Shown: piece by piece, positions 14,482-19,581 of the stretch | Layout of the letters: each line of letters begins with the position of its first letter | Position numbering within the stretch: the first letter of the stretch is position 1 | Assembly: GCF_006345805.1 (NCBI RefSeq) | Contig: NW_021824124.1 | Location: forward strand, 1 to 19,814 | Source of the DNA: Octopus sinensis | Taxonomy: Eukaryota | Direction of reading: 5' to 3' | DNA length: 19,814 bases | Notes under the pieces: generated by a model | What the model was told of the DNA's origin: nothing | Database searches by the model: none | Seen by the model: only the letters and a program-made list of their open reading frames with translations | Position numbers and translations under genes: made by a program

Positions 14482-14530
14482 AACTAATCTTACTCAAATT
14501 CCACTCTTCTATTCTATGTAATGGTCAAAA

Positions 14531-14887
14531 TAGTGTCCTCACCTTCATTGTTATTTTCACTAGGTTTTAGCTGTTTTATTTCCCCCCCTACCTTTTTCAG
14601 GTGTCTTGTGATTTACCTTAGTGCCTTACCTGGGATTGAACTCAGTGCCCCTAGATGACTGCAATGCATTTCAATACCTTTATCCATTAAGCTTTAAAAA
14701 TTTACTCTGACGCTGTCAACAGAAATAGCATAGTGGATAAAGGCACTGCTTAATGCAGTGCAGTCATCTAGAAGTTCTGACTTCAATACCGATCAAGGCG
14801 CTAAGGTGAACCAGAAGACATCTGAAGAAGGCTGGAGTATATGCAGATGAAACATACTAAAAGCCATAATGACGAGGAGGATATAAC
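14531..14887. mobile_element. Old palindromic element: head-to-head tRNA-like head + hammerhead-like tail
   Basis: Arms ~14531-14693 and ~14726-14887 (exact CTAGATGACTGC/GCAGTCATCTAG). A-box TAGCATAGTGG; B-box GAGTTCAATCC in the left arm on -; CTGAAGA at 14822 and GAAAC at 14849. Confidence 0.7.
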
Positions 14888-15299
14888 TCCAACTAATACA
14901 TTATCTAAAAATTCTTTGTCTCAGAAATATATAGACTTTTATTATCCACCCCATTAATTTGGTAAAAACTGGCCACATTAAATACCTGAACTATAATTTC
15001 CCAGATATATAAGAAGAGAAGAATTCTTCATTGCTGGAAGAGGCCTCCTCATTCAGAGCCAAGCTGGAGCTAAATAACCACAAAGACAACAAACAAATGT
15101 TTTTGACACGGTTTTGATTATATTTTGAGGCTTTTGTGAATGACAAACAGCAGAAATGAAGCCTGAATCATTTGGTTTCACAGTAGACATTGTAACCACA
15201 TTAGCCAAACCTGTAAATATATATCACATATATATGTATATAAAAATCATATATATCTATATATATATATTAGAAGGTTTGGAGATGTTGTACAGGTAT

Positions 15300-15423
15300 T
15301 ATATATTAGAAGAAATGAGGTACTCAGAAATCCGGATGGTTTTATATTTACAGATATATTAATAAATATCTGTAAATATAAAACCATCCAGATTTCTGAG
15401 TACCTCATTTCTTCTAATATATA
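15300..15423. repeat. Near-perfect hairpin: 58-bp arms, 8-nt loop
   Basis: 15300-15357 is the reverse complement of 15366-15423 with one mismatch. Confidence 0.95.
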
Positions 15424-15841: not shown

Positions 15842-15934
15842 GCGGCTGAAGAAGGCTTTTGATCTATCTGTTATATCAATTATGCATTGATATGAGAATA
15901 AGTTGTTCAATAAAGCCCGAAACATATGTACCGC
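15842..15934 (+). ncRNA. Type I hammerhead ribozyme motif (Penelope-type) with extended stem II
   Basis: Stem I GCGG/CCGC; CUGAAGA 15846-15852; stem II GGCUUU/AAAGCC with internal hairpin AUAUCAAU/AUUGAUAU; GAAA 15919-15922; stem III AC-AUAU-GU (palindromic); cleavage triplet GUA ending at 15930. Confidence 0.75.
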
Positions 15935-18177: not shown

Positions 18178-18782
18178 TTCAATAAAATCGCCATTGGCTT
18201 CAACCATGGCCTCCAGACGACTTAAGAAACTCTTGCAATTCTTCTGATGGTCTCCTTGTTTAAGTTGGTGAATGCTGCCATAATCTTTGCCTTCAGTTCA
18301 TCATTGTTGTTACAAGGACTTTTGTTGGTCTCTCACTCAACTGTACTCCATACATAATAATCAAGAGGGTTGCAGTGTAGAGGGTTAGGTTGCCAGATGT
18401 TAGGGGTGATATGATCGCAGAAATTGTCTGACAGCCATGACTGGGTTCTCTTGCTCGTGTGGCATCGTGCAGAGTCCTGTTGCCAGGCATAGGGTCTTCC
18501 AGCACCCATTCTCTTGACCCAGGGCAACCCTACTTCCACCAGGCACTTAATGTAGGCCTTTGTGTTGAGTCTGAGGCCATGTGGAAAGATGAATGGAGGC
18601 ATAACCTCACCATCATGTAGACTGGGTACCTGTTCGAATTGGTACATGTGCATATTGGTACATGTTCATATTGGTACATGTTCATATTGAAGCTTCTGGT
18701 ATTTTGTATTGGAGCTTCTGGTGCAAATGCCAAGCAGTACAGCATGTCATTTCCAAATATTTGGCAGAGTGAATGGCATCAT
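18178..18782 (-). pseudogene. DD37D transposase pseudogene
   Basis: ORF 18333-18653 contains WQQDSARCH...WQPNPLHCNPLDYYVW with exactly 37 residues between the two Asp. C-terminal LEAMVEANGDFIE near 18180-18220; putative N-terminus MMPFTLPNIWK*HAVLLGI near 18725-18782; stops and a large deletion are present. Confidence 0.88.
18639..18690. repeat. Three 16-bp tandem repeats at the transposase deletion junction
   Basis: TTGGTACATGT(G/T)CATA x3. Confidence 0.85.
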
Positions 18783-18953
18783 GAAGCTATTTTACTCACA
18801 GATGGTGCCCAACTGACCCTACTATACTGTGTAGCCAACAAAATCAAAAACAAACAATGCACATACAGTTCTATATTTAAGAGATGAGGAATTATGCACA
18901 TTATTTACATTATTTACATTTAATGGATATTTGTCCTCATCTTGTTTGTTGTT

Positions 18954-18999
18954 AACACAACGTTTCAGCTGATATTCCCTCCAGCTTTCTTCAGGTGTC
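18954..18999 (-). ncRNA. Minimal type I hammerhead ribozyme motif (left arm)
   Basis: GACAC-CUGAAGA-A-AGCUG(10-nt loop)CAGCU-GAAA-CG-UU-GUGUU: complete core, stems I and II pair, palindromic AACGUU at stem III. Confidence 0.7.
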
Positions 19000-19135
19000 T
19001 TGGTGAAATTTCAAACCTTGGTTCTCATTCCTAAGGTACTTTTCGATGTTGTTGTTGTTGCTGTTGTGCTTCTTCTTCTTCTTCTTCTTCTTCTTCTTCT
19101 TCTTCTTCTTCTTCTTCTTCTTCTTCTTCTTCTCC

Positions 19136-19181
<46 letters not shown>

Positions 19182-19227
19182 CATTATTTTTGTTGTTGTT
19201 GTTGTTGTTGTTGTTGTTCAGGTCACA

Positions 19228-19299
19228 ATATGGTGTAGTGGTTAAGAGCACGGGCTACTAGCCCCAAGATTCCAAGTTCGATTCCAGGCAGTGACCTGA
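19228..19299 (+). ncRNA. tRNA-derived Pol III head (not a functional tRNA)
   Basis: A-box TGGTGTAGTGG 19231-19241; anticodon-like hairpin GGGCT-ACT-AGCCC; B-box AGTTCGATTCC 19275-19285. Confidence 0.75.
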
Positions 19300-19311
19300 A
19301 TAATAATAATG

Positions 19312-19377
<66 letters not shown>

Positions 19378-19424
19378 TCGAAAAATACCTTAGGAATGAG
19401 AACCCAGATTCGAAATTTCCCCGA

Positions 19425-19470
19425 GACACCTGATGAAGGCTGGAGGGTCTATCAACTGAAATGTTGTGTT
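19425..19470 (+). ncRNA. Minimal type I hammerhead ribozyme motif (right arm, partly decayed)
   Basis: GACAC-CUGAUGA-A-GGCUG...CAACU-GAAA-UG-UU-GUGUU. Confidence 0.6.
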
Positions 19471-19581
19471 AACAACAAACATGATGAGGACAAATATCCA
19501 TCGAATGTAAATAATGTAAACAATGCACATGCGCAAAATTAAAAATATAAAATGGCAACAATTTACGCATCGTACCCTGTA

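Follow-up and report, generated by a model that had tools for sequence, protein, structure and literature searches.

The window, that is, the whole stretch of 19,814 nt that was analysed, contains a palindrome made of two inverted arms, 18865–19226 on the minus strand and 19228 to about 19517 on the plus strand. An inverted-repeat comparison of the window returned an arm pair of 233 nt with 80% complementarity, and the predicted fold of the palindrome has an energy of −320 kcal/mol (z −36 versus 20 shuffles). The right arm (+) begins with a tRNA-Arg-like head (19228–19298, positions +4 to +74), a putative Pol III promoter with an A box (TGGTGTAGTGG, 19231–19241) and a B box (GTTCGATTC, 19276–19284). 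The head is followed by an (AAT)n spacer (19299–19375) and by codons 1–41 of the ORF of a Penelope-like element (PLE; 19396–19517, ATG at 19396, short end), which include a decayed minimal hammerhead (19425–19470; core CTGATGA at 19430–19436 and GAAA at 19458–19461) with a predicted cut after 19465. The left arm (−) is 5′-truncated and retains only the last 9 nt of the head (19218–19226), a microsatellite spacer lengthened by (GAA)n and (CAA)n (19048–19217), and a decayed copy of ORF codons 1–55 (18865–19028, ATG at 19028–19026) with a minimal type I hammerhead (18954–18999; core CTGAAGA at 18994–18988) predicted to be cut after 18959. The outer ends of the arms are unequal, because an extension of about 33 nt, the PLE "tail" (18865–18897 (−), ORF codons ~45–55), is present on the left, long arm and absent on the right. 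In the window, the sequence AAACAATGCACAT is found at exactly two places, as a 13-bp target site duplication (TSD) on either side of the palindrome (18852–18864 and 19518–19530, plus strand). The right TSD copy overlaps element-like sequence and is identical to the continuation of the PLE itself at 11 of 13 positions, so the right boundary of the palindrome is blurred (19517–19524). The arms, boxes, spacer, hammerhead cores, left head remnant, and duplication had all been described in the initial annotation, and each was recovered at its position, as were the two predicted cut sites.

Just to the left of the palindrome lies an open frame of 110 aa (18333–18665, minus strand) that resembles a fragment of a Tc1/mariner DDE transposase in its motifs. 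Elsewhere in the window there is a near-perfect palindrome of about 120 bp (15296–15420), and a hammerhead-like motif (CTGAAGA … GAAAC), whose stem II could be long, was seen by eye at about 15846–15925; the motif scan, with a loop limit of 60 nt, did not report it.

The left hammerhead of the main palindrome has a 5-bp stem I, a bulged A, a 6-bp stem II closed by an A-U pair, and an ACGT stem III. In the right copy, stem II carries a mismatch and the ACGT palindrome is gone; no hammerhead fold is predicted for it, and Rfam gave no match to the head or the hammerhead in the window. The copies in the window are partly decayed, but the type proposed initially, the minimal PLE hammerhead as defined by Cervera and de la Peña (PMC4209133), fits the majority motif of 173 copies, with a CUGANGA/GAAA core, a bulge before stem II, G10.1-C11.1, palindromic positions 15.2–16.2, and a stem I of 4–5 bp. 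All 11 core positions are intact in 93 of the 173 unselected copies, N7 is the sole polymorphic core position (A in 30/173), and the substitution rate is 3.4% in the core versus 4.5% at other positions. Neither covariation nor selection was detected among the 173 copies (10.1/11.1, Fisher P 1.0), as is to be expected for copies that decay neutrally.

The tail, the hammerhead, and the presumed spacer next to it are in fact codons 1–50 of an 835-aa ORF that starts at the ATG at 19396. The unit recurs at dispersed sites in the same genome: there are 1024 exact matches to a 40-nt word from the hammerhead, and at several of the first 30 loci the unit is fused to a GIY-YIG-like frame. In a search with this frame, the tRNA-like head was found directly after the end of the RT–GIY-YIG ORF at 29 of 30 loci, and an independent protein search likewise returned 30 loci, all 30 from the same family (family A). 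At the opposite end, the tail, for which a position beside PLE RT ORFs had been anticipated, runs on into the 5′ end of the ORF itself. The order of the element is therefore ORF stop, UTR of about 25 nt, head, (AAT)n, ATG, hammerhead, tail, and remaining ORF. Head and tail are indeed linked, as proposed: the tail lies within 1.5 kb in 27 of 29 head-anchored copies.

The majority reading of the copies gives a single open RT–GIY-YIG frame of 835 aa from the "spacer" ATG, and natural copies keep open stretches of 391–551 aa (L135, L132, L044). The frame contains DKG, YVDD, and YSIPC..YKGET, which we take to be RT and GIY-YIG motifs. Direct Pfam and PDB scans of ORF pieces gave 0 matches, and the identity rests on these motifs and on homologues. 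Among the 120 listed of 1703, the homologues have 813–855 aa and carry RVT_1 (PF00078) and PF26215, some also GIY-YIG (PF01541). The alignment with one of them (P0004, 56% identical) begins at the hammerhead-encoded peptide (TPDDG..PKRCVNN), which is retained there. A distant homologue (P0121) begins with MPDDGGWISRRNV, which, at the level of amino acids, is consistent with a hammerhead over the start codon there too. Like Penelope/Poseidon elements, the octopus element combines RT with a GIY-YIG endonuclease at the C terminus in a single ORF, and natural partial tandems, of the kind that form pLTRs, occur (L243, also L245 and L235). Since the unit is collinear with the PLE ORF and L243 is a natural tandem, the palindrome consists of pLTR pieces of an autonomous PLE. 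Placement in the Penelope/Poseidon clade is suggested by the domain order and the absence of a Neptune-type Cys linker. A near-identical, near-full-length insertion was also seen on four contigs (L325, L326, L327, L329), reflecting either segmental duplication or assembly redundancy.

The distribution of copy ends was analysed in a set of 90 hammerhead-anchored copies, selected by an exact 40-mer alone (first 100 listed matches on contigs C1/C2, neighbours merged, last 4 left out); this set, like the copy samples in general, is biased towards low-divergence copies and these contigs. An adjacent inverted partner is present in 49 of the 90 copies and absent in 41. The 3′ ends are bimodal, at 138–154 and 172–186 (3/90 are shorter), and PLE arms end 50–95 nt beyond the hammerhead cut site. 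A long and a short arm are combined in 31 of 34 classifiable pairs (P 8e-7; 15 further pairs were unclassifiable), which suggests one cDNA per strand. TSDs of at least 9 bp are found mainly in pairs (22 of 40 with both ends, versus 4 of 41 solo copies and 2 of 119 mismatched controls). The notion that the palindrome inserted as one unit held up in a second pass as well, with duplications of 8–17 bp in 41 of 63 pairs (mode 12–13).

An inverted 5′-truncated copy together with a 30–40-bp tail at one end, as found here, has been described for PLEs (Craig et al., PMC8557442), and in PAc of Anolis two internal RT starts are used and both strands are cut and extended, with a predicted protein dimer (Frangieh et al., PMC11167929). 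Because the inverted copy, the one-sided tail, and double-strand priming are all described for PLEs, the palindrome is expected PLE behaviour and is mostly explained by PLE biology. In the octopus element, a PLE protein dimer would cut both target strands about 12–13 nt apart, and two cDNAs would be primed, one from each of two internal tail start sites about 33 nt apart. Each cDNA would either extend to where the RNA starts, about 6 nt upstream of tRNA +1, or terminate early, and head-to-head joining of the two would yield the palindrome with its tail on one side and with the duplication. PAc also requires RNA 3′ of the RT start (PMC11167929). The protein-binding site is probably the segment just 3′ of the tail, and short copies such as that in the window would be dead ends, because they lack this segment.

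The ends of the elements appear to be set by the head start and the two internal tail sites, and not by the ribozyme. Trimming by its own ribozyme, as envisaged for the unit, is therefore unsupported: only one of 187 arms starts exactly at the hammerhead cut. Immediately 3′ of the cut, 5′ ends are weakly, not sharply, enriched (12 ends at 88–100; 0.6%/nt versus 0.15–0.5% nearby). This enrichment would fit the original reading, in which the unit is a non-autonomous SINE/retrozyme in its own right: Pol III would transcribe it from short copies, its hammerhead would trim it, and a PLE would copy it in trans. In addition, short copies are about 5–8 fold more numerous than ORF-bearing ones, and non-autonomous derivatives do arise, as shown by a second family described below. 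However, the short copies are indistinguishable in sequence from the autonomous pLTR, they lack the post-tail segment that the second family has kept, their 3′ ends lie 50–95 nt past the cut and their 5′ ends at the head, and the absence of covariation speaks against this reading as well. An independent SINE/retrozyme is thus very improbable; part of the proposal, mobilisation by a Penelope RT/GIY-YIG protein, stands, the unit being part of such an element, namely the pLTR plus the first codons of an autonomous PLE.

The two hammerheads in the window cannot dimerise in cis because they lie on opposite strands. A head-to-head layout as an aid to dimerisation was considered and rejected for this reason and because a transcript reading through the palindrome forms long dsRNA. 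Activity of the hammerhead would be confined to dimers of the two pLTRs in the full-length RNA, which it might circularise, and would not extend to these palindromes. In PAc, hammerhead cleavage is protein-assisted and dispensable for insertion (PMC11167929).

The head was compared with 27 distinct tRNAs of the same genome, representing six isotypes, and best matched tRNA-Arg(TCT) (50–51 identities, z 7.2–7.5), in agreement with the tRNA origin claimed for it. It is a tRNA-related head with A and B boxes, as in SINEs; ARAGORN found 0 genes either in the window or in 21 loci, and the head does not fold as a tRNA. Among 82 head-reaching arms, 41 have their 5′ ends at −8 to +8, where the stop rate is 6.5%/nt compared to 0.85% inside the head and 0.5% upstream, a difference of about 13-fold. 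Of the head-anchored copies, obtained with a query that left out copies ending inside the head, 25/29 start at −7 to +4 and 4 run on upstream. Genome-wide exact counts drop accordingly along the element, from 6821 for the spacer and 3221 for the A box to 897 for the UTR (40 nt upstream) and 89 for the ORF 5′ end; the calibrated numbers of about 19k, 13,600, 2,500, and 300 copies, respectively, and the total of about 19,000 arms are lower bounds whose calibration used low-divergence copies.

Over its 2763 nt, the sense strand of the PLE is free of TTTT, compared to 2.9–5.5 expected for the CDS (P 0.026 with synonymous shuffling, 0.001 with a third-position null). Natural copies have 0.36 TTTT/kb versus 7.5/kb in a Neptune-type PLE, which served as a control (13 in 1380 nt). 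A second Poseidon family was sought as a further control, but all 30 loci belonged to family A. The Neptune-type family of the same genome (L125, L201–L230) showed no tRNA head in its 3′ region. Together, the pile-up of 5′ ends at the head start and the absence of TTTT suggest transcription by Pol III.

Alternatively, the head could stem from the insertion of an old tRNA-(AAT)n SINE into the 3′UTR of the PLE and be carried along as a passenger, with transcription from an internal Pol II promoter of the pLTR or by read-through, and with a pile-up due to the Pol II start or to fold-back of the RT. The poverty in T runs is not unique to the PLE: an A-rich LINE-like family has 4 TTTT in six ORFs versus 7.5 expected, and the PLE lacks G4 runs as well. 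This family, presumably Dong/R4-like by its motifs, also sits repeatedly inside the (AAT)n of the PLE (L014, L083, L084, L152–L154). Furthermore, uncapped Pol III RNA would make a poor mRNA. A short palindrome at the head start (−7 to +4) could by itself cause fold-back, and fold-back junctions centred on it are frequent. The promoter of Drosophila Penelope is internal, TATA-less, and LINE-like (PMC2377424). Yet the cDNAs stop past the palindrome (−2 to −7), even when joined to unrelated sequence, and no arm of 53 in the hammerhead set ends between −20 and −8, although 4 of 20 in the tail-search set end at −8 to −12. Both boxes fit the consensus and are retained in two diverged families, A and B, and the distance of 13 nt between position −6 and the A box downstream matches the spacing from start to A box in SINEs. 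A passenger head therefore appears unlikely.

RNA-seq data were available from three raw unstranded runs of one study on a related organism and from one contig run, all dominated by read-through copies. In the three unstranded runs, there was no pile-up of starts or ends at the head and no step in depth (144–432 at the ORF 3′ end, 303–531 at the head). The fold-back junction at −7 that is seen in genome copies was covered by 331–404 reads per run. No tail-to-head or cut-site joints were among the matches listed, from a library unsuited to circular RNA. An excess of A>G/T>C was considered as a sign of editing and rejected, since CpG decay of the reference copy explains it.

Weighing these data, we consider it probable that a PLE pLTR inserted twice, head-to-head, at this locus and that the tRNA-like A/B-box head of the pLTR, as a Pol III promoter, determines where the RNA starts. 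Judged from sequence features, the head likely acts as such a promoter, and Pol III is likely used for short RNAs; we are less sure of this for the full-length RNA.

The window harbours a second copy of related sequence at 14515–14945, listed without a strand. It belongs to family B, an older relative of family A (copies 73–91% identical to the majority), and is also arranged head-to-head. Family B shares with family A the 3′UTR, the tRNA-like head (both boxes plus a 10-nt insert), the hammerhead, and the tail; it has neither (AAT)n nor TTTT. Its hammerhead differs in loop II and has a 3-bp stem I, with the core of the minimal PLE type. No pile-up of copy ends is seen where its head begins (about 7/30), which counts against the reading favoured here. 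The ORF is deleted apart from about 45 nt after the tail, and tblastn searches of 30 family-B loci with PLE proteins gave no match. The unit of about 290 nt forms partial head-to-tail tandems at at least six of the 30 loci (L288, L291, L293, L294, L304, L310) and also occurs in head-to-head pairs. The retained 45 nt match the downstream RNA requirement of PAc (PMC11167929). Family B is thus a truly non-autonomous form, as had been envisaged for the palindrome.

With PAc-type PLEs (PMC11167929; PMC8557442; PMC4209133), the octopus element shares a single ORF for RT and C-terminal GIY-YIG, pLTRs in partial tandem, the inverted 5′-truncated copy with a 30–40-bp tail on one side, a pair of internal RT starts, and a minimal hammerhead over the ORF start with a cut downstream of the ATG. 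It differs from them in the tRNA-like A/B-box head and (AAT)n in the pLTR, in the 5′ ends at the head, and in a sense strand without TTTT. A tRNA-derived Pol III promoter together with a type I hammerhead is known from the high-copy, SINE-like schistosome repeats Sm-alpha and Sj-alpha (PMC6765202, PMC2770079). These are non-coding and head-to-tail, with a canonical hammerhead that frees monomers, whereas the octopus module has a minimal hammerhead and lies inside a protein-coding autonomous element; family B comes closer to them. Non-LTR retrozymes of animals also have a type I hammerhead, and an origin from PLE pLTRs and mobilisation by PLEs have been proposed for them (PMC7229834; bioRxiv 10.64898/2026.07.22.740005); the passages compared from the latter text make no mention of tRNA or Pol III. 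They are head-to-tail repeats of about 300 bp, in contrast to the head-to-head palindrome. Head-to-tail monomers that each carry a hammerhead were found in neither octopus family, the short copies of family A being solo or head-to-head and family B forming partial tandems only. Family B resembles the retrozymes and is a candidate link between PLE pLTRs and retrozymes or Sm-alpha-like SINEs.

Nor is the unit an independent non-coding one that shares only its 3′ tail with a partner, as in tRNA-derived SINEs, because its head is included in the autonomous element. The tRNA SINEs of octopus include OR families derived from tRNA-Arg; OK, OR1, and OR2 were reportedly described by Ohshima and Okada in 1994. 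They resemble the PLE head unit in their tRNA-derived heads, a comparison made through citations only; OR1 and OR2 differ in being cited as CORE-SINEs, again by description, so that sequence identity of the unit with an annotated SINE or a Repbase/Dfam entry is possible. In the literature compared, including that on octopus repeats (PMC13282606, PMC8967140, PMC6962438, PMC5625713, PMC4824008, PMC4758252, PMC10886601), no description of a tRNA-headed PLE was found; this comparison drew mostly on titles and the beginnings of abstracts, with repeat databases outside its scope. Hence, the novelty that the initial annotation suspected does not extend to the combination of a tRNA promoter and a hammerhead, already known from Sm-alpha, but to the tRNA-Arg-like A/B-box head inside an autonomous PLE, which was not found in print.

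A Pol III promoter in a protein-coding mobile element would be unusual. A more far-reaching scenario, possible but doubtful at present, is that an autonomous PLE captured a tRNA-Arg-derived Pol III promoter, purged Pol III terminators throughout the 2.8-kb sense strand, is reverse-transcribed from RNA made by Pol III, and has spawned about 20,000 SINE-like palindromes and an ORF-less, retrozyme-like offshoot. If true, this would amount to the reverse of a SINE-LINE fusion, with a Pol III promoter driving an autonomous retroelement, and would raise the question of how an uncapped RNA with a hammerhead in codons 10–25 is translated or switched to template. The roughly 20,000 copies represent fossil statistics of PLE integration, with two primed strands, two RT starts, and a 12–13-bp stagger, and complement the in vitro data on PAc. 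Some octopus repeats annotated as SINEs may be PLE ends. Finally, heavy editing of a lizard Penelope and a high dsRNA potential in octopus have been reported (PMC5625713); each palindrome is a ready-made long dsRNA and could feed ADAR hyper-editing, a putative link.
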